Virus record (IMG/VR): IMGVR_UViG_3300046028_009474
Location: 1,629 to 65,628 of that record
Reading direction: 5' to 3' (one strand)
Length of the DNA stretch: 64,000 nucleotides
Origin: a virus
Lineage: Duplodnaviria; Caudoviricetes
Shown: positions 14,710 to 38,282 of the stretch, in pieces
Layout of the letters: the number at the start of each line of letters is the position of its first letter
Position numbering within the stretch: position 1 is the first letter of the stretch
The notes under the pieces: model-generated
What the model saw: the letters and a program-made list of their open reading frames with translations, nothing else
Databases searched by the model: none
Told to the model about the DNA's origin: nothing
Position numbers and translations under genes: made by a program

Positions 14710-15897
14710 TTACTTTACATCAGATAGCTTCATATAAATTTTATCTTCTAAGGGAGAGAGGCTATTGATGCTGATGATATCATTGCTTTTTCTTCCAGTC
14801 AAGATGATAACTTCTCCTTTTTTGGGAAGAACTTTTCCAGATTGAATGAAATTGGAGTATGTGGCATTTTGTTGAGAGTCCATCATGAGTGCTGTTAAAT
14901 TGCCAGATTCATCAGACATTTCTAGTCTAGCATATTTGTTTCCTCTAGCGCTAGTTCTAGAGATGACATCGCTCACAGTTCCGACAAATTTAATTTTTTC
15001 ATTGTTTCCAAGCTCAGAAATTCCACTAGAAGAGATTAGTGTTTCTCCAGAGTTTTCAGTAAAAACTTCTCTAATATTAGTAGAGTGACTGTATCCCAAC
15101 AGCTTAGTTTCAAAATACCAATTAGCGAATTTTAAGTGCTTGTGATTTTTTTCATAAATTACTTTGTATGGTTCGTACTTTGATTTAAAGGTGACGAATC
15201 TTTTTTCAGAAAAGATTAATTTATTATTGTCATCTACAAGTGATTGAGTTGTGCATTCGTGAATGCACTTCAAAACATCATAGTTGAAACGCTCTCCAAG
15301 AGCTATCACGCTACGCTTCTCCTTGTCAGTGAGCAGGTTGAACGCCTGCGCCTCTAGAACGAGCCTACAGCGATCTTTATTCAAGAAGTGATCAAGCACC
15401 CCAGCTTGAATCAAAGCGGATAAGACGCCAATATTAAGCCCCGCTTGCTTGGCAGCTAAAAAAACCTCGTACTTGTTCTTGAACTGCCCTTCGCGAAACT
15501 CAATCAAACTCTCTAATGATTTAGTAGACACTCCTTTGATAGAATTTAATCCATAACGAATATCCTTGCCTTGAATTGTAAAATCAATTTCAGACTGAGC
15601 TAAATCTGGAGCTAAAAGCTTGATGTCGAACAATGGAAGCTCTTGTGTGATTTTCGAGATTTCCTCATGAGGATTCGGTTCAAATTGAGCATACTTTAAA
15701 AGACTCAAATAAAACTGTTGTGGATAATTGAATTTTAAATAGATTGTAATGGCTGCAAGATTCGCATATGAAATGGAATGCGAATTTGATGTAATTAAGT
15801 TTTTAAGATAAAAATTATGATCAGTGGAATCGACTTCCAAATCAATAGTTTTTTTAATACCTAATGGTTTAAAAGATTTAATTCTTGTAGCTTGCAT
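14710..15897 (-). CDS. dnaE: DNA polymerase III alpha, C-terminal part, preceded by split intein C-fragment
   Basis: Begins with the IntC (..IDLEVDSTDHNFYLKNLITSN), then SHSISYA..YLK.NYP..FY, the HhH motif IRYGLNSIKGV and an OB-fold C-terminus. Confidence 0.93.
   Translation of the reverse strand: MQATRIKSFKPLGIKKTIDLEVDSTDHNFYLKNLITSNSHSISYANLAAITIYLKFNYPQQFYLSLLKYAQFEPNPHEEISKITQELPLFDIKLLAPDLAQSEIDFTIQGKDIRYGLNSIKGVSTKSLESLIEFREGQFKNKYEVFLAAKQAGLNIGVLSALIQAGVLDHFLNKDRCRLVLEAQAFNLLTDKEKRSVIALGERFNYDVLKCIHECTTQSLVDDNNKLIFSEKRFVTFKSKYEPYKVIYEKNHKHLKFANWYFETKLLGYSHSTNIREVFTENSGETLISSSGISELGNNEKIKFVGTVSDVISRTSARGNKYARLEMSDESGNLTALMMDSQQNATYSNFIQSGKVLPKKGEVIILTGRKSNDIISINSLSPLEDKIYMKLSDVK
15784..15897 (-). 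mobile_element. Split intein C-fragment (IntC, 38 aa)
   Basis: Block F (IDLEVDSTDHNFY) and block G ending in SN, followed by the +1 nucleophile Ser (codon at 15781-15783). Confidence 0.92.
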
Positions 15898-16811
15898 GTT
15901 AAAATATTTTTAAATTCTTCGTTATTTATTTCAGTCTCCCATAACTCTATCATAGTCCAACCCTTTTTGTCAAGAAATTTTTTCTTAGATTTATCTCTTC
16001 CAAAGTTTCTTTTTTGTATTTTCCCAGATGGTCCATTTGGGTAGAATCGAGGATCTATATGGAAATAAGTTCCTTGGCATTCAATTGCAATTTTAAATTC
16101 AGGAAATGCAAAATCTAAAGAAAAATATACTAAATGATACTCTTCTTCAAATAAACATTTAAGTGGTATTTCATTTAAAAATTCTCTTACTTTGATATGT
16201 ATAGAAGTTTCCCTTTTAAAAGTTCCGTCGCTATATCTTTTTGCTGTAATTTCACTTAATTTATTTTTAGTCTCTTCTGAGTGCTTCTTTCCAGAGTGGC
16301 CGTGAATTTTTCTAACTAAAGCAGATTGAGATTGTTTTATTTTTGTTTCATCTGAAGTTATTGACCCCAATCTTCTATTTCTGACTTGCTCCCCCCATTT
16401 AAGATCCCCTTTATTCCAAGCTTCTTTTCCAAACATTGGATTTGCAGATCCCATTCTCTCTATAGAGATTCTTTCGCAAAACTTTTTAAACTTTTCATTT
16501 TGTTTATTAGTGCCTTTCCCAAGTTTATAATTAGAAAATAATACTCCAGCGCCAATAAGTTGAAAATTAACATCTTCATTCGTCTCTAAGCATTTAGGAT
16601 ATTCTTGCAAATATAATTTAATATAATTAGCAATATCAGTATTGTGATATTTTTTTAAATAATTATTGAATTTATTTAAATAATAAGCTCCATCCTGTCT
16701 AGTTGGAAATAATTTAATTATTGTTTTTTTATCTACGTTGTCTAATAGACAAAAATTGAATTCTTCTGCTGGAATTAATCTATGATTAGAATCGGTTTTA
16801 ATTAGTCTCAT
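15861..16811 (-). mobile_element. Free-standing homing endonuclease (NUMOD3 repeats plus Vsr-like/EDxHD-type nuclease)
   Basis: NPMFGKEAWNKG, SDETKIKQS and GKKHSEETKNKLS (NUMOD3-like), then LDFAF..IAIECQGTYFH..RD..K..GWTMIELWE. It lies between the two intein halves. Confidence 0.88.
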
Positions 16812-16812
16812 A

Positions 16813-18588
16813 CTAATTATTACACATAATTAGCCAATTATTTTCAAGAATATCTTTAATAGGATGCATTTTTAAATCATGCTCACATAAAAACTTATGC
16901 TCCATAGAGCATTTGATAGAAACCCCATTCTCCATTTCAAATTCAAAAATTTCTTTTTCATTTTTCATTATATCTAATACTCGAACATAATGATCCTGCT
17001 CGTTTTGAATATCGAACGCTTTGATATAATCTCCGCAATTAATATCTTTCAACATTTTTATTTCTCCCGAATCTAATTCAACTGTCTCTTCTTCAAAAAT
17101 GCACTTATTAAAACTATAATTTGCGGAGTCTGATGCAACCTTCCAAAAAACATCTCCAACAATTGGATCAAGATCGTTTTCTATAATTTTATCTTTAATT
17201 TTACCCTGCCAGATAGCCATTTGATCCACTTTCTTTTTACCAATAATTCTTCTAAGCTGTTCGGCTTCATCCAAGCTGAATCCAATTTTCTTACACATTT
17301 GAAGTGTTTGTTCTTGGTATAAACATAATCCTCCAGTAGATGAAAGCACATCATCAAAGAATAGATGAATAGATTGAAACTCTCCAGTGCGAGAATAATC
17401 TGCATAACGATCAACGAAGTCTAAAGCTCCAGGTCGAGCCAAGGCTACCACCGCAGAGAGTTCTTGCAGATTTTTCGGAGCTACTTTTTGAGCTACTCTA
17501 AAATTAGTATCAGCTTCAATTTGAAACAATCCCTTGGGGCTTTTCAAGATTTGCATTGCTGCATAAATGCTAGGATCTTCAACATTAATGTCGTCCACGT
17601 TAATTCCAATCATAGAACAAACATCATGAATCACCGACAGAGTTCTGAGTCCTAAGATGTCGAATTTAACAGTCAGTGCTGAGACGCTGTTCATGTCGTA
17701 TCCAGATACAATAGCATCTTCGCCAGTCTTTTGGATTGGCATAATGTCTGGAAGATTATAAAAACTAATCGCAATCCCCGAAGGATGAACTCCAGTATTT
17801 TTGTTTAAGCCCTCTAGTTTGTTAGCAATAGTATATACCTTTTTGTGGGACAGTGCAAAAGCTTTAAAAACTTCGCTCTCTTCAAAAGCATCTTTTAGCT
17901 TGAGAACTTTGCCGAATTTTTTAGGAATAGAATCACTAATAATGTTCACCTCTGTTTCTGACATTTCAGCAACAATTTTCCCGCACTCTTTAACACAGAG
18001 CTTGCCACTCAAAGTATTCATTGTGAGAATTTTAGAAGTTTTTCCTTTATATTTATTATTAATATATTCGATCACTTCATTTCTGCGCTCATAGCTAATG
18101 TCATTGTCAATGTCTGCGAGAAGAGATCCGTCGAGATAAATCTCCCCTTCGCTTTCAATGATTTTAGCTCTGCTTTTAGAAACAAATCGTTCAAAAAAGA
18201 GATCGTATTTGATTGGATCAATGTTTGTAACTGCAATGCAATACAAGACTAAACTACCTGGAGCACTTCCTCGCCCAGCCCCTACTGGAATTTTATTCTC
18301 ATGACAATAGTTGATAACATCCCAATTCAAAAGAATATAATCAATGAATCCTAATTCCTTTAGGATTGACAGTTCCATTGTTAATCTTTCATAGTAAACT
18401 TGCTTGTTTGGAAGCTCGTCAATTTTTCTTTTCTTAACACCTTCAAAGCAAAGCTTGCGCAAAAAGTTAAAATTAGAAATGCTTGATTGGCATCCAAGAA
18501 GATCGTAGTATTTTTGGTCTACACGAATTTCTGGAAGTTTAACCCCAGCTGGAAATGGACTTTTGTAAGGAGAAAAACTAGTAATCAT
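16813..18588 (-). CDS. dnaE: DNA polymerase III alpha, N-terminal/catalytic part, ending in split intein N-fragment
   Basis: GAGRGSAPGSLV, LFFERF, ADIDNDI, GVHPSG, KFDILGL, GLFQ, LYQEQ and ANYSFNK, then the intein starting at Cys1. Confidence 0.95.
   Translation of the reverse strand: MITSFSPYKSPFPAGVKLPEIRVDQKYYDLLGCQSSISNFNFLRKLCFEGVKKRKIDELPNKQVYYERLTMELSILKELGFIDYILLNWDVINYCHENKIPVGAGRGSAPGSLVLYCIAVTNIDPIKYDLFFERFVSKSRAKIIESEGEIYLDGSLLADIDNDISYERRNEVIEYINNKYKGKTSKILTMNTLSGKLCVKECGKIVAEMSETEVNIISDSIPKKFGKVLKLKDAFEESEVFKAFALSHKKVYTIANKLEGLNKNTGVHPSGIAISFYNLPDIMPIQKTGEDAIVSGYDMNSVSALTVKFDILGLRTLSVIHDVCSMIGINVDDINVEDPSIYAAMQILKSPKGLFQIEADTNFRVAQKVAPKNLQELSAVVALARPGALDFVDRYADYSRTGEFQSIHLFFDDVLSSTGGLCLYQEQTLQMCKKIGFSLDEAEQLRRIIGKKKVDQMAIWQGKIKDKIIENDLDPIVGDVFWKVASDSANYSFNKCIFEEETVELDSGEIKMLKDINCGDYIKAFDIQNEQDHYVRVLDIMKNEKEIFEFEMENGVSIKCSMEHKFLCEHDLKMHPIKDILENNWLIMCNN
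16816..17103 (-). mobile_element. Split intein N-fragment (IntN, 96 aa)
   Basis: Block A CIFEEETV..G..IKMLKDINCGD and block B IKCSMEHKF; the ORF ends without a block F/G. Confidence 0.92.
16821..16825 (-). promoter_or_regulatory. GTGTA putative phage promoter for the homing endonuclease, inside the last IntN codons
   Basis: GTGTA-ATAATTAGT-ATG; 9 nt spacing. Confidence 0.55.
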
Positions 18589-19217
18589 ATTTCAATATCG
18601 TAGATTTGTTTGAGGAAAATATCGAAATTCATTTCAATATCGTACAAGGCATCATGCAACTTGCCCTGATCAAATGCGATACCATAGTGCTTGAGCAAGG
18701 TCAACTGAGATGTTTTAAGACCCTTCTCTTTAACATGAAGAAGCTTGTACTGCCAACTAGTAAAGTTATTCTTGTCGGGCCAAATGTTTTTAAAGATTGC
18801 AGCAGCAATTGATTTAGTGTCAATGATTCGATCAATGAAAGAGTAGTCGGATTTTAATCCCATTTCTTTTCTCCAAATATTAATCATATAAACATCAAAT
18901 CCTAGAAGATTCTGCCCGATTATTTTATACTCTGGATTGTAAAGATAAGGTTTTAGCTTATTAAAAACTTCCATGGGATCTTCGGCGAGTCTTTCGTATT
19001 TCTCCATGGAGAATCCAGTCACTTTAGCAGCACCTTCGGAGACTGTTAGATTCGGCCACTTGATAAAGTGGCTGTGCTTAGATTTGATTTGTTTGCCTTC
19101 TGCAACAATCCAAGCAACTTGCCATGGTCTAGACTTTACTAGATTTAATGATTCTGTTTCCGTGTCCAAGACTATATATTTCTGAGAATTATTAAAGCGA
19201 AGTAGATTATCGTTCAT
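18585..19217 (-). CDS. DEDDh 3'-5' exonuclease (DnaQ/epsilon-like proofreading subunit)
   Basis: ExoI VLDTETES, ExoII QNLLGFDV, ExoIII LHDALYD. Confidence 0.9.
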   Translation of the reverse strand: MNDNLLRFNNSQKYIVLDTETESLNLVKSRPWQVAWIVAEGKQIKSKHSHFIKWPNLTVSEGAAKVTGFSMEKYERLAEDPMEVFNKLKPYLYNPEYKIIGQNLLGFDVYMINIWRKEMGLKSDYSFIDRIIDTKSIAAAIFKNIWPDKNNFTSWQYKLLHVKEKGLKTSQLTLLKHYGIAFDQGKLHDALYDIEMNFDIFLKQIYDIEI

Positions 19218-19959
19218 TAGTTTGTTCTAGATAAGATTCCCAGCAAAATTCATCACTTCCAAAGTGATTGAGATTAGGAGAGGATAGTGTAGCTTGGCGG
19301 CCAAAGGTTCGATTGCAAATAATTTTATAAGTTTGAAAAGCTTCTACATCACACTTATCTTTATAATAAATAGATTTAGTTTTTTGCACTTCAAACTTTT
19401 TACCGTTTTCAGTAAATTTTAAAACTTCTCTTTCCAGAGCCTCATCGAATGGAAGATTGTTAGACTCTATAAAAAAGACTGGATTGATATCTCCAAACTC
19501 TTGAATGCAGCTTTGAAAGTAAAAATTATTCTGATGAATGAATGAATCATAGAATGGAACAGCCAACTTCAAGTTGTCTGTCCATGCTAATTGCAATTGC
19601 TCATGAGTGATTCTACCATTAAAATCAACATAAATTTTAGAGTAAAGACTATACAAATCTTTGCACCCTTGATCATTTTTAGCAAAAACAATTAGTTTGT
19701 GAGTTGACGCTGCATTATCAAGCTGATCACAGCATGTGATTCTCAATCCAAAAATCAATTGAATGCCAAGAGCTTGACTGATTCTAAATGCGTCGAAAAA
19801 TCCAACCATAGAATCTTCCACAAGAGTAATTGTTTTTAAATTATTATCAACAGCAATAGAGAAAATGCTATCTGGTCCGTTCTCATGACAATTATTAGGA
19901 TCATTTAGAGTTAGGATACTGCGTCCAATAGAACAGCTTGATTTGAAGAGAGCGAGCAT
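19207..19959 (-). CDS. Stand-alone PHP domain of DNA Pol III alpha (metal ligands degenerate)
   Basis: S.G.SIL, LVEDSMVGF, LIFGLR and KLIVFAKNDQGCKDL match the DnaE PHP pattern, but the HxH and DH ligands are absent. Confidence 0.8.
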   Translation of the reverse strand: MLALFKSSCSIGRSILTLNDPNNCHENGPDSIFSIAVDNNLKTITLVEDSMVGFFDAFRISQALGIQLIFGLRITCCDQLDNAASTHKLIVFAKNDQGCKDLYSLYSKIYVDFNGRITHEQLQLAWTDNLKLAVPFYDSFIHQNNFYFQSCIQEFGDINPVFFIESNNLPFDEALEREVLKFTENGKKFEVQKTKSIYYKDKCDVEAFQTYKIICNRTFGRQATLSSPNLNHFGSDEFCWESYLEQTNER

Positions 19960-35018: not shown

Positions 35019-35990
35019 TTAGAATAAATCGTTTTCATCGAAACTCTTATTGTCTTTAGAATACTCTACTGGAGTACTGTAAAAGAAATCAGATGCTGTG
35101 TTTCCGTATAAACTCTCGTCAAACCATTTTGTTTTAGCAAGAAGTTCGTCGTCGATTGAGAAGGCTTTCTTGAATCCAATCAAACCAAATGATTCATTGA
35201 TTCTATTTTTCACAAATTCTTTAAGAATTGGGGCGGATAACAAATCTTCTTCGGCTCCATTAACAATCCAATCAATAATTTTAGACTCTGCAATCAGAGC
35301 TTCTTGAGCTTCGTGCAGAATTCTCGCCTCAAGTTCAGCATCAAATAATTCTGGGAACTCTTTTCTAATATCATTAATGATCTGAATCCCGATAAGACCA
35401 TGAATCATCTCTTCGTTTTTAGTATATCTAACCTGCTGATTAGTATCTTTTAGTAAGTTATTTTTACCGAACCAGTTAATAACATAAAACTGGCTAAACA
35501 GCGAAGCGTTTTCGACAAAGAGAGTGAATAGTATGATGCTATAAAGAAACTGCTTTTTAGAATCTTTGTAGAAACGATGAGTATACTTTTTCAAATACTT
35601 CACTCTTCCTTGAATCCAATCAAGCTTGAGGTTCTCCTCAAATACATCATTTAAATCAAGTATTGTTAGCAGTGCTTCATAAGCATTATTATGAACAACT
35701 TCTGTATTTGCCATTACAAAACCAAGATCTTGAATAGCTGGATGCGGAAGATTATCTCCTAATTTTGCCCAAAATGTTTTAACAGCAACTTCAATTTGCC
35801 CAATTGCAGACAATGTGCGAATGATGATTTCCCTGTCTCTCTCACTCAAGGAAACTTTAAAATCTTGAACGTCTGATTTAAAATTCCACCTTTTATGAGA
35901 CCACGCATTGTTATGCATAGCATCAATAAATTGCTCTGTCCAGGGATAAAGGTTGGGTTTTCTAGATACTTGTTCGTCAAAAATACTCAT
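35019..35990 (-). CDS. nrdB: Ribonucleotide reductase class I beta subunit (class Id signature)
   Basis: QIEVAVKTFW, EVVHNNAY, FVENASLFSQF, EEMIH and DFF..PVEY. Start placed at MSIFDE (35990). Confidence 0.93.
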   Translation of the reverse strand: MSIFDEQVSRKPNLYPWTEQFIDAMHNNAWSHKRWNFKSDVQDFKVSLSERDREIIIRTLSAIGQIEVAVKTFWAKLGDNLPHPAIQDLGFVMANTEVVHNNAYEALLTILDLNDVFEENLKLDWIQGRVKYLKKYTHRFYKDSKKQFLYSIILFTLFVENASLFSQFYVINWFGKNNLLKDTNQQVRYTKNEEMIHGLIGIQIINDIRKEFPELFDAELEARILHEAQEALIAESKIIDWIVNGAEEDLLSAPILKEFVKNRINESFGLIGFKKAFSIDDELLAKTKWFDESLYGNTASDFFYSTPVEYSKDNKSFDENDLF

Positions 35991-36001
35991 GGCTAATATC
36001 T

Positions 36002-36006
36002 TACAC
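36002..36006 (-). promoter_or_regulatory. GTGTA putative phage promoter before nrdB
   Basis: GTGTA-AGATATTAGCC-ATG; 11 nt spacing. Confidence 0.45.
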
Positions 36007-36082
36007 CATAGTCTAGGAATCAAGAATAGCAAATGGAATTTTTCTTTAATTTTGCCGTTGACAGATTAAAATTTGATATACA

Positions 36083-36310
36083 TAATACTGAGCGAAGCGA
36101 AGTATTACCGAGCGAAGCGAGGTTGCCGTTAAATTTGTAGATGCTCTGAATAATTAATTTGCTTCGCAAATTAATTAAAGATTTTTGAAAAAAATCTTTA
36201 TTCATTGCACTTTTTCACTTGAATTGTGGAACTGCACTAATATAATACTGAGCGAAGCGAAGTATTATACGAGCGAGAGCGAGTTTAAAATGAAAACGTA
36301 ACGCTTTTCA
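36083..36310. repeat. Cluster of direct repeats and GNA-loop hairpins (candidate origin or ssDNA structural element)
   Basis: ATAATACTGAGCGAAGCGAAGTATTA occurs twice (36082 and 36242). There are four GCGAAGC cores and perfect 11-12 bp palindromes at 36151-36177 and 36176-36200. Confidence 0.85.
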
Positions 36311-36379
36311 ACTACGTGCAAATATATTTTTACTTTATGTATAAATTTTACTTGACAGCATACAATTCTATGCTTAATT

Positions 36380-36655
36380 ATGTTAATGGACGAACCACAA
36401 CAAGAATATTTATGCTCTAGCGCTAACTGGGAGGTATCAGTATCGGCAAAATCTGCTGAAGAAGCAGCATCACTAGCAGTTCAAAAAATAGTCGATGGTT
36501 CAAAAGTTGTAAACTTTCCAATTGGAGCTATGATTGTTGTTATACCAATTGTGAAAGATCTGGAAAATTTACACATGATTTATGCTCCCAAAATCTTGGC
36601 AGACGTTGGTCTTCATGAATTCTCATCAGATTTAATCAAATTTATAAATGAATAA
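36380..36655 (+). CDS. Hypothetical protein
   Basis: 91-aa ORF, first gene of the + strand block, with TTGACA at 36352 upstream; it overlaps the dUTPase start. Confidence 0.65.
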   Translation: MLMDEPQQEYLCSSANWEVSVSAKSAEEAASLAVQKIVDGSKVVNFPIGAMIVVIPIVKDLENLHMIYAPKILADVGLHEFSSDLIKFINE

Positions 36656-37151
36656 ACTTAAAGTCAATAACATTTCTTTGATTAGCCCTCCATCTAATGG
36701 AGATGTTGGCTATGATATTTTCGCAAATTCAGAGCCAAATATTGTTGGTGAATACACTGAATCACTAGGCTATACTCACATTGATTACATTGAGTATGAC
36801 TCTGGATTGATTATTGATCCAGGGTCTGAGTATCATACTTTGCTTTTTCCCAGATCTTCAATTTCAACTAAAAATCTTGCTCTCTGCAATAGTGTTGGAG
36901 TTATTGATTCTAGCTATAGAGGAACTATCAAAGTAAGGTTCAAATACATTCCTTCTCCAGAAGATGTTAATAATATTGGACGATTCGTTGCTAGACACGC
37001 TATCGATGTTAATTCTCAGTATATTTATAAAAAAGGCGATAAAATCGCACAATTAGTTTTTCAGAAATCAAATTTCGTTGAGCTTGAACAGTGTGATTCT
37101 TTTGAACCAACACAAAGAGGAGAGGGGGGCTTTGGTAGCACAGGAGTATGA
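36648..37151 (+). CDS. dut: Trimeric dUTPase
   Basis: GYDI, FPRSS, NSVGVIDSSYRG, GDKIAQL and RGEGGFGSTG. Confidence 0.95.
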   Translation: MNKLKVNNISLISPPSNGDVGYDIFANSEPNIVGEYTESLGYTHIDYIEYDSGLIIDPGSEYHTLLFPRSSISTKNLALCNSVGVIDSSYRGTIKVRFKYIPSPEDVNNIGRFVARHAIDVNSQYIYKKGDKIAQLVFQKSNFVELEQCDSFEPTQRGEGGFGSTGV

Positions 37152-37726
37152 ACGATAGAATTATTGGAATTTGTGGACCAGCTAGAAGTGGCAAAGATAC
37201 TTTAGCTGATAGCTTCGTTGAAATTTTTAAAGAGTATAAAGTTAAAACTCAAAAATTATCTTTTGCTAAAGAATTGAAATATGAATGTAAAAGTTTTGTT
37301 AAAAAAACTTTAGGCATTGACATTTTTACAGAAGTTACAGAAGAAAAAGATATTATTCGACCGCTTTTAGTAACATGGGGAACTCACGTAAGGCGCAAAT
37401 TAAATGATAACGTTTGGATTGATGCTCTTGAAAAAAGAATGCATTCTAATAAAATAGTAATCATTAGCGATGTTAGATTTGAGAATGAATTTAATTGGGT
37501 AAAAAAACAAGGAGGAAAAATTATATTTGTTAATAGAACTCTTCCAGATGGAAGTTTAGTTCCAAATGCAAATGAAGAGGAGGAGAAAAACAATTCTTTC
37601 TTACAGCAAAATGCTGATTCGGCTTTTACATGGGACACTATGAATGATGAAAGATGGATTCAAGCTATTTCTCATACAATTTTAACAGGGATCGTTCCTA
37701 AAGATTGGATTAACCGTGGACTCTGA
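37148..37726 (+). CDS. Deoxynucleoside monophosphate kinase
   Basis: IIGICGPARSGKDT, SFA..LK, R..L..WG, W and ISDVRFENE. Confidence 0.88.
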   Translation: MNDRIIGICGPARSGKDTLADSFVEIFKEYKVKTQKLSFAKELKYECKSFVKKTLGIDIFTEVTEEKDIIRPLLVTWGTHVRRKLNDNVWIDALEKRMHSNKIVIISDVRFENEFNWVKKQGGKIIFVNRTLPDGSLVPNANEEEEKNNSFLQQNADSAFTWDTMNDERWIQAISHTILTGIVPKDWINRGL

Positions 37727-38282
37727 TTTATCTCTCATCAATAAAATTAAAGAGAATCGCGATGATGAAAGTTTAAAAGAACTCATTAATCGCCACTCTG
37801 GGATTTATTTAGAAATGGTTAATCGTGTTATTCCAGACTACTCTGGCATTGTTAATAAGCACGATGTTTTGCTGGAAAAAGATTTTACAATCTATTGTGC
37901 TGCTTTAAAATATGAGCCAGATAGAAATACAAAATTCTCAACTCACTTAGCTAACGAAACAAGATGGAAATGCTTGAATCTTTATAATAAAAATAAAAAG
38001 ATGATGGAAGAGCCTCTTGATAAAATCATCGTCGAACCTTTTTGCGAAGACTTTACAAAGTCTATTCACAAACAAGAACTTATTCAAAGCATTCTTGATT
38101 ATGCAAAAAAATATCCTGATGCTAGAGTAAGAAAAATGATTGACATGAGATACGACTCGATGTATAATAAAGTCGTTCCTTGGAAATTAATTGCTAAAGA
38201 ACTTGGAATGAGCATTCAAGGCTGCATAGATATTCACAATAAATTCATTATTAAAGCCAAAAAAGAACTAAATTATGTATAA
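37716..38282 (+). CDS. Phage sigma70-like sigma factor
   Basis: Region 2 (LI.RH.G, A.KYEPDRNTKFSTHL..RW) and a region 4 HTH (MRY..WKLIAKELGMS). Confidence 0.82.
   Translation: MDSDLSLINKIKENRDDESLKELINRHSGIYLEMVNRVIPDYSGIVNKHDVLLEKDFTIYCAALKYEPDRNTKFSTHLANETRWKCLNLYNKNKKMMEEPLDKIIVEPFCEDFTKSIHKQELIQSILDYAKKYPDARVRKMIDMRYDSMYNKVVPWKLIAKELGMSIQGCIDIHNKFIIKAKKELNYV

Follow-up and report, generated by a model that had tools for sequence, protein, structure and literature searches.

The longest non-coding gap in a 64-kb stretch of DNA from an uncultured lake phage (the window, which is part of the 65.6-kb contig G000) contains two strong host-type early promoters, P1 and P2, in each of which the sequence places the −10 box and the predicted start within a pair of DNA mini-hairpins. 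The GA-GCGNAGC-GA hairpins of the gap are two copies of a module of about 45 nt, each laid out as a −10/discriminator hairpin capped by GA-GCGAAGC-GA with a second small hairpin of like kind directly after it, and the 5′ arm of each copy is a sigma70-type −10 box. The 386-nt gap is best explained as the control region of the rightward early operon downstream of it, and the array has more the look of a control cassette for promoters than of an established replication origin. The first-pass annotation had proposed a functional single-stranded or cruciform element acting in replication origin, priming, packaging or recombination. Selection on the hairpins and their agreement with the rules for DNA mini-hairpins support such an element, but the origin, priming and packaging roles are unsupported, and the annotation had overlooked that two conserved sigma70-type promoters supply the −10 boxes on which hairpins H1 and H5 are formed.

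Gene setting and features of the gap

The rightward operon downstream of the gap comprises an 89/91-aa ORF, a dUTPase, a dNMP kinase, a 188-aa ORF, an SSB and a glycosyltransferase. The genes of the phage further include a DnaG-like primase, a DnaB-like helicase and a recombinase, and the large ORFs of the window encode a tape measure protein and fibres. A 120-kb relative (G001, 93% complete) carries the locus at 80 kb, and the motif is confined to this locus in both the 65.6-kb contig and G001. The gap had been singled out as the longest non-coding one, which holds within the window but not across the whole genome of G001, where there are gaps of 654, 579 and 528 nt. Three strain lineages, L160, X13 and L005, were compared with the window; L160 is a new 11-kb contig found by searching with the H3/H4 palindrome, a search that otherwise returned only two known IMG/VR contigs and metagenome twins of these. 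The promoters and hairpins of the gap are as follows.

P1, 36058-36086, + strand: promoter with −35 box TTGACA (36058-36063), 17-nt spacer and −10 box CATAAT (36081-36086), 11/12 consensus
H1, 36083-36107, + strand: TAATACT-GA-GC-GAA-GC-GA-AGTATTA, with tandem G.A pairs, a GCGAAGC core and the outer stem TAATACT/AGTATTA
H2, 36107-36123, + strand: ACC-GA-GC-GAA-GC-GA-GGT
H3, 36151-36177, no strand assigned: TAATTAATTTGC-TTC-GCAAATTAATTA, a perfect 12-bp AT-rich palindrome
H4, 36176-36200, no strand assigned: TAAAGATTTTT-GAA-AAAAATCTTTA, a perfect 11-bp A/T palindrome
P2, 36219-36246, + strand: promoter with −35 box TTGAAT (36219-36224), 16-nt spacer and −10 box TATAAT (36241-36246), 10/12 consensus
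H5, 36241-36269, + strand: TATAATACT-GA-GC-GAA-GC-GA-AGTATTATA, whose 5′ arm is the P2 −10 box and discriminator
H6, 36269-36284, + strand: AC-GA-GC-GAGA-GC-GA-GT
H7, 36291-36310, + strand: TGAAAACG-TAA-CGcTTTTCA, with one bulge, outside the conserved element
P3, 36352-36381, + strand: promoter with TTGACA (36352-36357), 17-nt spacer and TAATTA (36375-36380)

Sites that match at least 10 of the 12 consensus positions number 53 on both strands of the 64 kb, and three of them fall on the + strand of this gap within a span of 324 nt; the promoter scan scores P3 among them as TTGACA-18-AATTAT (10/12). Sigma70-type use is deduced from consensus and conservation, and the start sites are predicted. 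The P3 spacer contains a stem-loop of 5-6 bp, (A)GCATA-caattc-TATGC(T), which is the sole helix retained in the RNA centroid fold; L160 preserves it with a G.T pair. A gap of 5 nt separates the P3 −10 box from the ATG at 36386, a spacing also found in L005, and the P3 mRNA is therefore probably leaderless.

All hairpin coordinates of the first-pass annotation agree with the sequence. The 5′ arm of H1 overlaps the P1 −10 box and discriminator, and H1 and H5 have a 26-nt exact repeat in common; because the 5′ arms of both lie upstream of the predicted starts, neither can form in full in RNA from its own promoter. H4 abuts H3, with some 20 nt between it and the P2 −35 box downstream. The GNA loops of H1, H2, H4, H5 and H6 are on the + strand, and H3 alone differs, its loop reading TTC on the + strand and GAA on the − strand in the window and flipping between strains. 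A moderately T-rich tract (GTTTRWAWTG or GGTTGC) comes after each of H2 and H6. A coding role for the gap was rejected, as its small ORFs, including one of 61 aa on the minus strand, differ in length and frame between lineages; no conserved ORF was found in the gap between the cassettes.

Conservation and chance expectation

With at most one mismatch, GAGCGAAGCGA occurs three times in the 64 kb, each time at this locus (shuffle mean 0.50; 1 of 100 shuffles reaches 3), and four of the seven GCGAAGC copies in the window are found here. For the palindromes H3 and H4 together the folding z is −5.9 (+ strand) and −7.0 (− strand), and none of 200 shuffles does as well. For the modules the nearest-neighbour DNA z-scores are weak (−0.55 for H1/H2 and −1.96 for H5/H6), in folding models that give GNA loops and sheared G.A pairs no credit for their special stability.

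Against L160 a single position of the 86 in H1, H2, H5 and H6 differs, a loop indel, compared with 42 of 145 in the promoter spacers, the linkers and positions 36285-36351. Hairpin by hairpin, L160 shows no difference in H1 (0/25), H2 (0/16), H4 (0/25, likewise against L005) or H5 (0/29), and L005, from which H1 is absent, differs from H5 at 2/29 positions, a loop A->T and one junction indel. The arms of H3 are invariant in all lineages; L160 and X13 carry its loop in the opposite orientation, with GAA on the + strand. The stems of H6 are invariant too, around a loop that is GAGA in the window and GGA in L005, L160 and X13 both having GAA. Hairpin changes relative to L160 and L005 are loop changes (A->T, and GAGA/GGA/GAA with its 1-nt indel) plus the junction difference adjacent to H5, so that the module loops vary across lineages as GAA/GTA and as GAGA/GGA/GAA. 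X13 alone adds a stem change, C36093T in H1, in which a G.T pair is retained on the + strand. Substitutions in L160, X13 and L005 break the pairs of H7, and of the seven hairpins first described six (H1-H6) are real and conserved and H7 is not kept in relatives.

The promoter boxes are held in the same way. The P1 hexamers are identical in L160, where 5 of the 17 spacer positions are changed, and X13 likewise has five spacer changes with the hexamers intact; the P2 spacer differs at 11/16 positions in L160 and 12/16 in L005, with 0/6 differences in the −10 box, and P2 in both lineages consists of TTGACA, a 16- or 17-nt spacer and TATAAT. Across the three lineages the −35 and −10 boxes are retained or nearer consensus, whereas the spacers are scrambled. 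In L005 the P1 −35 box and flanks are kept and the segment formed by the −10 box, H1 and H2 is swapped for unrelated sequence; a further variant junction lies at 36128 in an X6 contig.

Pairing itself is preserved. All 65 of 65 stem cells pair over five module copies, a proportion that falls to 18-48% when the partner is slid by 1-3 columns. Covariation within the lineage is thin, 12 of 13 pairs being invariant, and the sole compensatory change is the outer pair that is C-G in H2 and A-T in H6. The outer stems of these two hairpins are unlike in sequence and still paired around a constant core, as had been noticed at the outset, and the constraint and pairing data together bear out the view that these are hairpin-forming elements under selection and not chance palindromes. 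It is also very improbable that the array is a largely neutral or selfish palindromic insert, spread by recombination or template switching and −10-like by accident. Such an insert would fit the presence/absence polymorphism of the P1 copy between strains, the exact repeat common to the two copies and the sporadic occurrence among relatives, but in diverged strains the array is strongly constrained compared with its flanks, the −35 boxes are correctly spaced and conserved or improved to consensus, and variation is confined to loops.

The question of a replication origin

At the T7 primary origin, T4 oriF and oriG, and ColE1, RNA made from a promoter opens the duplex. The present locus resembles these origins in layout, with tandem promoters, an AT-rich segment of a kind common in the window, a place at the head of DNA-metabolism genes and hairpins on the strand that transcription would displace, and a transcription-activated origin can be drawn from it. 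RNA from P1 or P2 would open the duplex, mini-hairpins on the displaced non-template (+) strand would stabilise the R-loop and/or signal to the DnaG-like primase and DnaB-like helicase, and the AT-rich palindromes H3 and H4 would serve as unwinding element. We consider this unlikely, while noting that the motif occurs at one locus per genome, that the tandem promoters lead into perfect palindromes with 85% A+T, that the GNA-loop hairpins are on the strand displaced by rightward transcription, that the phage has its own primase, helicase, SSB and recombinase, and that the flip of the H3 loop shows the palindrome to have been resolved as a hairpin at some point in vivo. Mini-hairpins are moreover placed at the complementary-strand origins of G4, St-1 and alpha3 and at RSF1010 ssiA in the sections of a review used here (PMC13037366).

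The GC-skew check suggested in the first pass, when corrected for gene orientation, shows nothing at the locus: in a regression of GC/AT skew on gene orientation and a replication side term, the side coefficient at the G001 locus is about −0.002 and the fit is not improved (RSS 1.4511 vs 1.4515), a test of low power in a genome with no clear switch anywhere. The AT-rich core is likewise unexceptional, and AT-richness was rejected as the mark of a unique unwinding element because 33 clusters in the window match or exceed it. The P1 module is dispensable, being missing in L005, and in relatives that share the gene order at about 50% dUTPase identity the gap has no such hairpins. The negative skew test, the unexceptional AT-richness and the restriction of the feature to close relatives set the locus apart from the T7, T4 and ColE1 origins, and it is unlike the ssi signals (G4 oric, RSF1010 ssiA/ssiB) in that hairpins are not mirrored on both strands flanking an opened region.

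RNA-level and protein-binding explanations

The hairpins might instead act purely in a leader RNA, with H3-H6 in the P1 transcript and H6 in the P2 transcript serving as 5′-end stabilisers, processing sites or attenuators paired with an antiterminator. The two modules do fold as RNA on the + strand (−10.1 and −11.3 kcal/mol; z = −2.3 and −3.0), the pair left by the X13 substitution would be G.U in a transcript, T-rich tracts come after H2 and H6, and in other phages the core often follows closely on the 3′ end of an ORF, on its sense strand (six sense and three antisense among co-directional cases, with several convergent). A leader is nevertheless distinctly unlikely to be the whole account. 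In both H1 and H5 the 5′ arm precedes the predicted start, no rightward promoter at all lies upstream of H1, and L005 has lost the P1 −10 box yet keeps H5. The terminator scan of the locus gave 0 sites and no U-tract follows the hairpins, whereas the terminators of G001 itself are of a different make (GACCCACC-CGAAAG-GGTGGG, then T6). Rfam yielded nothing at E < 1 for positions 35800-36600 (best E = 1; the seven listed matches are well below gathering scores) and nothing above gathering score for 13 core-carrying loci. Long-range RNA pairing between the H1 core and H3 was rejected, since it is lost with the flipped H3 loop of L160 and X13. The motif also follows DNA rules, d(GCGAAGC) melting at 76.5 °C against 39 °C for r(GCGAAAGC) in the figures taken from the review (PMC13037366).

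Binding sites for a protein on double-stranded DNA are improbable. The dyad TAATACT-N11-AGTATTA over −10/+1 would be a repressor operator in a position classic for repressors, or GAGCGNAGCGA with its 20-21-bp period would be a set of initiator iterons, the motif repeating at 20 and 21 nt, about two helical turns, at a single locus. However, the core GAGC...GCGA has no Watson-Crick dyad, and its symmetry is sensible only as fold-back G.A pairs. The tolerance of a central 1-nt indel (GAA/GGA vs GAGA) speaks against a dimer operator of double-stranded DNA; H2 and H6 have unlike outer stems that nonetheless pair, and the same core has unrelated paired stems in other phages. Nor does the first downstream ORF point to a repressor: it has no PHROG or Pfam family and no helix-turn-helix-like model, though the single-sequence model is poor (pLDDT 61.7), and its look-alikes in the Atlas are unnamed, with scores of at most 0.83.

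Distribution beyond the close lineages

The P2 module is present in the close relatives, in keeping with the expectation that related genomes would hold a comparable cluster, but the expectation fails for the P1 module in L005 and for the relatives at about 50% dUTPase identity. Among the matches listed at that identity, 9 of 11 loci have a −35 box TTGACA in the loop of a 4-7-bp stem, with variants (GTTC/GAAC, ATCTTC/GAAGAT and ATCCTTC/GAAGGAT) linked by compensatory changes; the other two listed loci, of the L149/L150 type, have no −35 stem. In 80 loci kept of 595 nrdB-based relatives no homologous modules were found, although there is one similar lone hairpin in L093 and a hairpin with a GCAA loop in L064-L066. 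The pattern AGCGAAGTATTA-N1-3-GAGCG picked out 17 stretches in IMG/VR and no new modules, 15 of them being chance occurrences in apparently coding sequence and two known relatives, and cultured phages (50,697 records) gave no blastn match to either the 601-nt region or the 55-nt P2 module.

The core itself is more widely spread. In other phage contigs 17 of 34 distinct flank pairs extend its stem at 3 or more of the next 4 positions, as against a mean of 4.2 when flank pairs are permuted, and none of 2000 permutations attains 17. None of the 35 contexts of the identical 17-mer core in those contigs adjoins a sigma70-like promoter of at least 10/12, which suggests that the core has some more general role.

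Proposed promoter/stem-loop cassettes

The reading that we prefer, with confidence just short of even, is that the gap holds tandem early promoter/stem-loop cassettes resembling the PeSLs (promoter-early stem-loops) of T4-type phages and built here from DNA-type mini-hairpins. The gap has three tandem sigma70-like promoters, each embedded in a stem-loop, P2 being additionally preceded by the AT-rich perfect palindromes H3 and H4 and P3 having its stem-loop in the spacer, and on this reading the hairpins would work in cis on transcription from P1-P3. H1 and H5, which cover about −12 to +17, can form at their own promoters only in DNA. Both have a GNA loop closed by C-G, the feature that in N4 permits extrusion at physiological supercoiling, and may extrude in the same way; extrusion would sequester the −10 box and so render very strong early promoters sensitive to DNA topology. 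H2, H6, H3/H4 and the P3 spacer hairpin may insulate the tandem promoters or attenuate read-through between them. We propose that strain-to-strain gain and loss of the P1 module occurs because the repeated cassette is a substrate for recombination.

The recurrence of a stem-loop within a promoter at the same locus in distant relatives counts for this PeSL-like reading. Against it stand the occurrence of the motif at one locus, the lack of an ORF between the cassettes, the absence of terminator-like sites from the scan where PeSL stem-loops stop transcription, the thin covariation within the lineage and the core contexts in other phages that adjoin no sigma70-like promoter, and an insulating role sits poorly with P1, which has no upstream co-directional promoter. 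If it is correct, the gap would hold a protein-free, topology-sensing element in phage early transcription, and the PeSL concept would extend beyond T4-type phages. With the hairpins tied base for base to the −10/start region, promoter switching, attenuation of read-through and R-loop formation become testable questions; hairpins without an effect on the promoters would point back towards roles in replication or recombination.

A bolder proposal, which we put forward as doubtful, is that at these host-RNAP promoters the non-template strand from about −12 to +33 snaps into two ultra-stable mini-hairpins upon opening of the duplex, forming either a topology gate or an R-loop origin. In the first case the strongest early promoters would be gated by DNA topology, as a protein-free on/off switch. 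In the second the displaced strand would be trapped and the purine-rich nascent RNA would stay hybridised, giving an R-loop origin to which the hairpins recruit the primase and helicase of the phage. In either case mini-hairpin DNA would be serving in a new way at promoters of bacterial type, which would offer a handle on the many unexplained GCGAAGC arrays of uncultured phages.

Comparison with known systems

The promoter of Horwitz and Loeb is said to have been engineered, with a palindrome over its −10 region. Their cruciform reportedly repressed an E. coli gene (Horwitz and Loeb 1988, as cited in PMC6060812), and on the strength of that citation it shares with the present locus an inverted repeat at a bacterial promoter. 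Here the arrangement is natural and extrusion putative.

The N4 virion RNA polymerase promoters provide a second parallel. As described in the portions of PMC4496689 used here, they have, as do P1 and P2, a small hairpin with a C-G-closed 3-nt G-N-A loop at the transcription start, and in N4 the loop-closing G:C pair with the 5′ G and 3′ A of the loop allows extrusion at physiological superhelicity. In N4 a virion T7-like polymerase, helped by SSB, reads a stable hairpin of the template strand whose centre lies at −11 (PMC4496689), whereas the GNA hairpin of the present locus is on the non-template strand of a −35/−10 promoter. A search of G000 and G001 (93% complete) for a T7/N4-type RNA polymerase (PF00940) gave no match, with control genomes also silent and the N4 enzyme very divergent.

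Mini-hairpin DNA, d(GCGNAGC)/d(GCGNNAGC), known from the work of Hirao and colleagues, matches the cores, and the part of the review consulted gives transcription-initiation regions among its contexts (PMC13037366). H1, H2 and H5 have the core GCGAAGC and H6 has GCGAGAGC, all of the form G-C-G-N(N)-A-G-C, and the cores of relatives are GCGTAGC, GCGGAGC and GCGAAGC. Only N varies, with the closing pairs and the G and A of the loop kept, the exception being C36093T in X13. The likeness thus extends to exact cores, N-only variation, interchangeable 3- and 4-base loops and a transcription-initiation site. The examples in that part of the review, namely G4, St-1, alpha3, RSF1010 ssiA and the N4 polymerase promoters, include none of sigma70 type read by a host RNAP; the present hairpins add a tandem G.A extension and a long AT outer stem.

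The architecture of the preferred reading is that of the PeSLs of the T4-type phages RB49 and phi1 (Arbiol et al. 2010, PMC2839356), taken here from part of that account. A PeSL is a strong sigma70-like promoter with a stem-loop between its boxes, overlapping the −35 or −10, upstream or downstream; many copies occur across hyperplastic regions, where they flank ORFans, their stem-loops terminate transcription, and they mediate insertions and deletions between close relatives. There are two or three cassettes in one gap here, as against dozens around ORFans, and where the PeSLs have polyG/polyC stems, those here are rich in AT, with tandem G.A pairs and a GCGNAGC cap. The present hairpins also come in pairs and have no U-tract. 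What the two have in common is a strong sigma70-like early promoter fused to a stem-loop, an AT-rich region upstream, a repeated cassette and cassette-bounded replacements between close relatives.

Promoters and hairpins between nrdB and the rightward operon

The window covers 64 kb out of an IMG/VR virus contig of 65.6 kb (estimated completeness 53%), and the gene content indicates a tailed phage with a genome of about 120 kb and its own replication and nucleotide-metabolism functions. It encodes a 2443-aa tape measure protein, tail fibres, DNA polymerase pieces and a DnaB-like helicase; the phage also has a primase, a UvsX-like recombinase, an exonuclease, SSB, and a nucleotide-metabolism set of class I ribonucleotide reductase, dUTPase and dNMP kinase. 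The replicative polymerase is split into several collinear pieces (14710-19959), two of them separated by a homing-endonuclease-like ORF (15861-16811). The phage is present in many lake-water metagenomes (24 runs listed, all DNA). The hairpins occupy a 386-nt gap between nrdB and a rightward operon (in order, 89/91-aa ORF, dUTPase, dNMP kinase, 188-aa ORF, SSB, glycosyltransferase). The first-pass annotation had placed seven hairpins here, all of which are found on reading the sequence, and had overlooked three strong promoters, identified by a consensus scan and termed sigma70-type by consensus match.

Features of the gap and the adjoining nrdB
35019-35993, minus strand, nrdB
36058-36086, + strand, promoter P1, TTGACA-17-CATAAT, 11/12 consensus matches
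36083-36107, hairpin H1
36107-36123, hairpin H2
36151-36177, hairpin H3, perfect palindrome with 12-bp arms
36176-36200, hairpin H4, perfect palindrome with 11-bp arms
36219-36246, + strand, promoter P2, TTGAAT-16-TATAAT, 10/12
36241-36269, hairpin H5
36269-36284, hairpin H6
36291-36310, hairpin H7
36352-36381, + strand, promoter P3, TTGACA-18-AATTAT, 10/12 (alternative reading TTGACA-17-TAATTA)

Sites matching at 10/12 or better are not rare in such AT-rich DNA (53 in the window, both strands counted), but three on a single strand of a single gap, all within 324 nt, is far above the window density. A perfect 12/12 promoter, TTGACA-17-TATAAT, lies elsewhere (38140-38168), within the 188-aa ORF and some 100 nt before the SSB gene, and carries no hairpin.

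Promoter and hairpin are physically merged. An exact 26-nt direct repeat contains H1 and H5 and starts inside the -10 hexamer, and H1 takes the final four bases of CATAAT, followed by ACT, as its 5' arm, H5 TATAAT followed by ACT. The unit is therefore a module of ~45 nt in which a -10 box leads into a first hairpin (H1/H5) and this into a second (H2/H6); it is present in two copies 160 nt apart. All three copies of the 11-mer GAGCGAAGCGA in the window lie at this locus (shuffle mean 0.5; at least three in 1/100 shuffles), and the 11-mer is confined to it in the entire contig too. H3 and H4 together fold far better than shuffled sequence (z about -6 to -7). The differing outer stems do stay paired, as the annotation held (C-G in H2, A-T in H6); across relatives all 65 of 65 stem cells are paired, with one compensatory pair and 12 of 13 pairs invariant, a thin covariation drawn from three to four lineages only. 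H7 is not maintained in the relatives' lineages.

The spacer of P3 contains a 5-6-bp stem-loop. The -10 box of P3 (TAATTA/TAATTG) is separated by 5 nt from a conserved downstream ATG at 36386 (window 36352-36390; 2960-3010 in L005, the locus of a close lineage), and L005 lacks the further ATG that the window has upstream, at 36380, so the first gene of the operon is probably translated from a leaderless mRNA and 89, not 91, aa long. Just upstream of P3, a 42-nt block (36304-36345; CAACTACGT...TTTTACTTTATGTATAAAT) recurs between unrelated flanks on both sides in a contig from metagenome run X6, and may represent either a small regulatory element common to both contigs or a recombination joint.

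Conservation in close lineages

Three lineages were aligned: the window, L004/L005 (74.6-kb and 120-kb IMG/VR contigs) and L160 (an 11-kb contig); a contig from run X13 resembles L160 and may be the same lineage, so is possibly not independent. P2 keeps its -10 TATAAT in all three while its spacer differs at 11-12 of 16 positions, and its -35 box, TTGAAT in the window, is TTGACA in the other two. Both P1 hexamers are identical in L160, with 5 of 17 spacer positions changed. The hairpin modules differ from L160 at one of 86 positions, against 42 of 145 in the spacers, linkers and 36285-36351. Changes within hairpins fall in loops, save for one stem change in X13, where C36093T in H1 leaves a G.T pair on the + strand: the H5 loop is GAA or GTA, that of H6 GAGA, GGA or GAA (a 1-nt indel included), and in L160 and X13 the H3 loop is flipped from TTC to GAA. 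L005 retains the P1 -35 box and both flanks, with the entire module of -10 box, H1 and H2 swapped for unrelated sequence, and an X6 contig has another junction at 36128. Together these retained boxes and hairpins, changed spacers and the loss in L005 argue that the promoters are functional, that the hairpin modules are under constraint or homogenised between copies, and that the P1 copy is dispensable. Contigs assembled from X6 also break exactly at palindrome H3 (records 14 and 20 overlap at 36160-36176), a pattern that would be consistent with a sample containing both loop orientations.

Distant relatives and the question of an origin

The annotation had taken the array for an origin, priming, packaging or recombination signal. 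A replication origin of the transcription-primed type would suit both the layout, in which promoters precede AT-rich palindromes, and the restriction of the motif to this one locus, both in the contig and in a 93%-complete 120-kb relative. The available tests do not support it. Once gene orientation is regressed out, GC skew carries no origin signal at the locus (replication-side term about -0.002, fit not improved); 33 other clusters in the window are at least as AT-rich as the core; the P1 module can be lost; and mini-hairpins are absent from the gap of relatives that share the nrdB, small ORF, dUTPase and kinase order at about 50% dUTPase identity.

What those distant relatives have is a promoter beside the small ORF with TTGACA in the loop of a 4-7-bp stem (9 of 11 printed loci), in most cases followed by a T-rich tract; the three stem variants, GTTC/GAAC, ATCTTC/GAAGAT and ATCCTTC/GAAGGAT, are related by compensatory changes. 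The remaining two loci, of the L149/L150 type, show no stem around TTGACA. Taken with the stem-loop in the P3 spacer, this means that across most of the group the promoters at the locus are embedded in stem-loops, which vary only in kind and position. Before nrdB the distant relatives (L145-L156, about 2440-2480) carry TTGACA-16-TAATAT with an ATG 5 nt past the -10 box, so their nrdB is probably leaderless; the equivalent stretch of the window (35994-36030) reads GGTGTA-N11-ATG.

Hairpin or duplex, DNA or RNA

A site recognised as duplex is disfavoured: the symmetry of GA-GC-GNA-GC-GA is not Watson-Crick and can be understood only if the strand folds back with sheared G.A pairs, the centre tolerates a 1-nt indel, and the H2 and H6 outer stems are unlike in sequence yet paired. 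Loci elsewhere lend the hairpin independent support. The exact 17-mer ACT-GAGCGAAGCGA-AGT occurs at 45 IMG/VR loci, and 17 of 34 distinct flank pairs extend the stem at at least three of the next four positions (permutation 4.2; 0/2000 reach 17), eight of the 34 coming from one jumbo-phage family and so not all independent. Large phage contigs (65-180 kb) pair this hairpin with a second, C-GAA-G hairpin (L008, L009, L015, L020, L023, L027, L032, L033, L037, L045 and others), and the two hairpins close off a conserved non-coding stretch of some 250 nt that looks structured and separates convergent genes; these loci match nothing in Rfam at gathering score.

The cores follow the sequence rules of mini-hairpin DNA (GCGNAGC or GCGNNAGC, N free), and the reported melting temperature is 76.5 C as DNA against 39 C for r(GCGAAAGC) (PMC13037366). 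With starts predicted from consensus spacing alone, 6-9 nt after the -10 box, P1 or P2 RNA begins inside the GCGAAGC core, so that full H1 or H5 cannot form in it; no rightward promoter lies upstream of H1, and L005 keeps H5 despite having no P1 -10 box. Two points speak against a role in DNA only: folding of the modules as RNA is moderately good (z -2.3 and -3.0), and in other phages the core often lies just 3' of a sense-strand ORF. A terminator scan of the 386-nt gap found none, and the genuine terminators of the 120-kb relative G001 are of a different, canonical kind (GC-rich stem, GAAA loop, T6 tract). Five near-identical ones (GACCCACC-CGAAAG-GGTGGG, then a T-rich run, T6 in 4/5) are spaced 0.4-0.7 kb apart on the minus strand of G001 (35778-37935) among small genes and long gaps, in what looks like a cassette-like early region in a genome part absent from the window.

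Proposed function and known systems

From this anatomy and its conservation, which are observed, we tentatively infer a mechanism: the locus could be a set of tandem early promoter/stem-loop cassettes, in which hairpins would act in cis on transcription. Any action of H1 and H5 would necessarily be at the DNA level, and H2/H6, H3/H4 and the hairpin in the P3 spacer may serve as insulators against read-through among the tandem promoters. In phage N4 the same loop features (C-G closing pair, loop G and A) are described as permitting extrusion at physiological supercoiling (PMC4496689), and a cruciform repressing an E. coli gene is a reported precedent (Horwitz and Loeb 1988, as cited in PMC6060812).

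The element falls outside the N4 promoter family: its hairpin occupies the wrong strand, and no vRNAP turned up; the search for a T7/N4-type RNA polymerase, which gave no family match in the contig or the 120-kb relative, is weak because its control was silent. Nor is it demonstrably an ssi/G4-type signal. The promoter-early stem-loop cassettes (PeSLs) of T4-type phages are described as a strong sigma70-like promoter with a stem-loop between the boxes, over the -35 or -10 box, or just upstream or downstream, and as driving rearrangements bounded by the cassettes among closely related phages (PMC2839356). Numerous dispersed copies and a proven terminator, both PeSL features, are not seen here, but promoters embedded in stem-loops of varying kind and position match that published description. 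By this analogy the element would work most like a PeSL, built with the mini-hairpin DNA motif.
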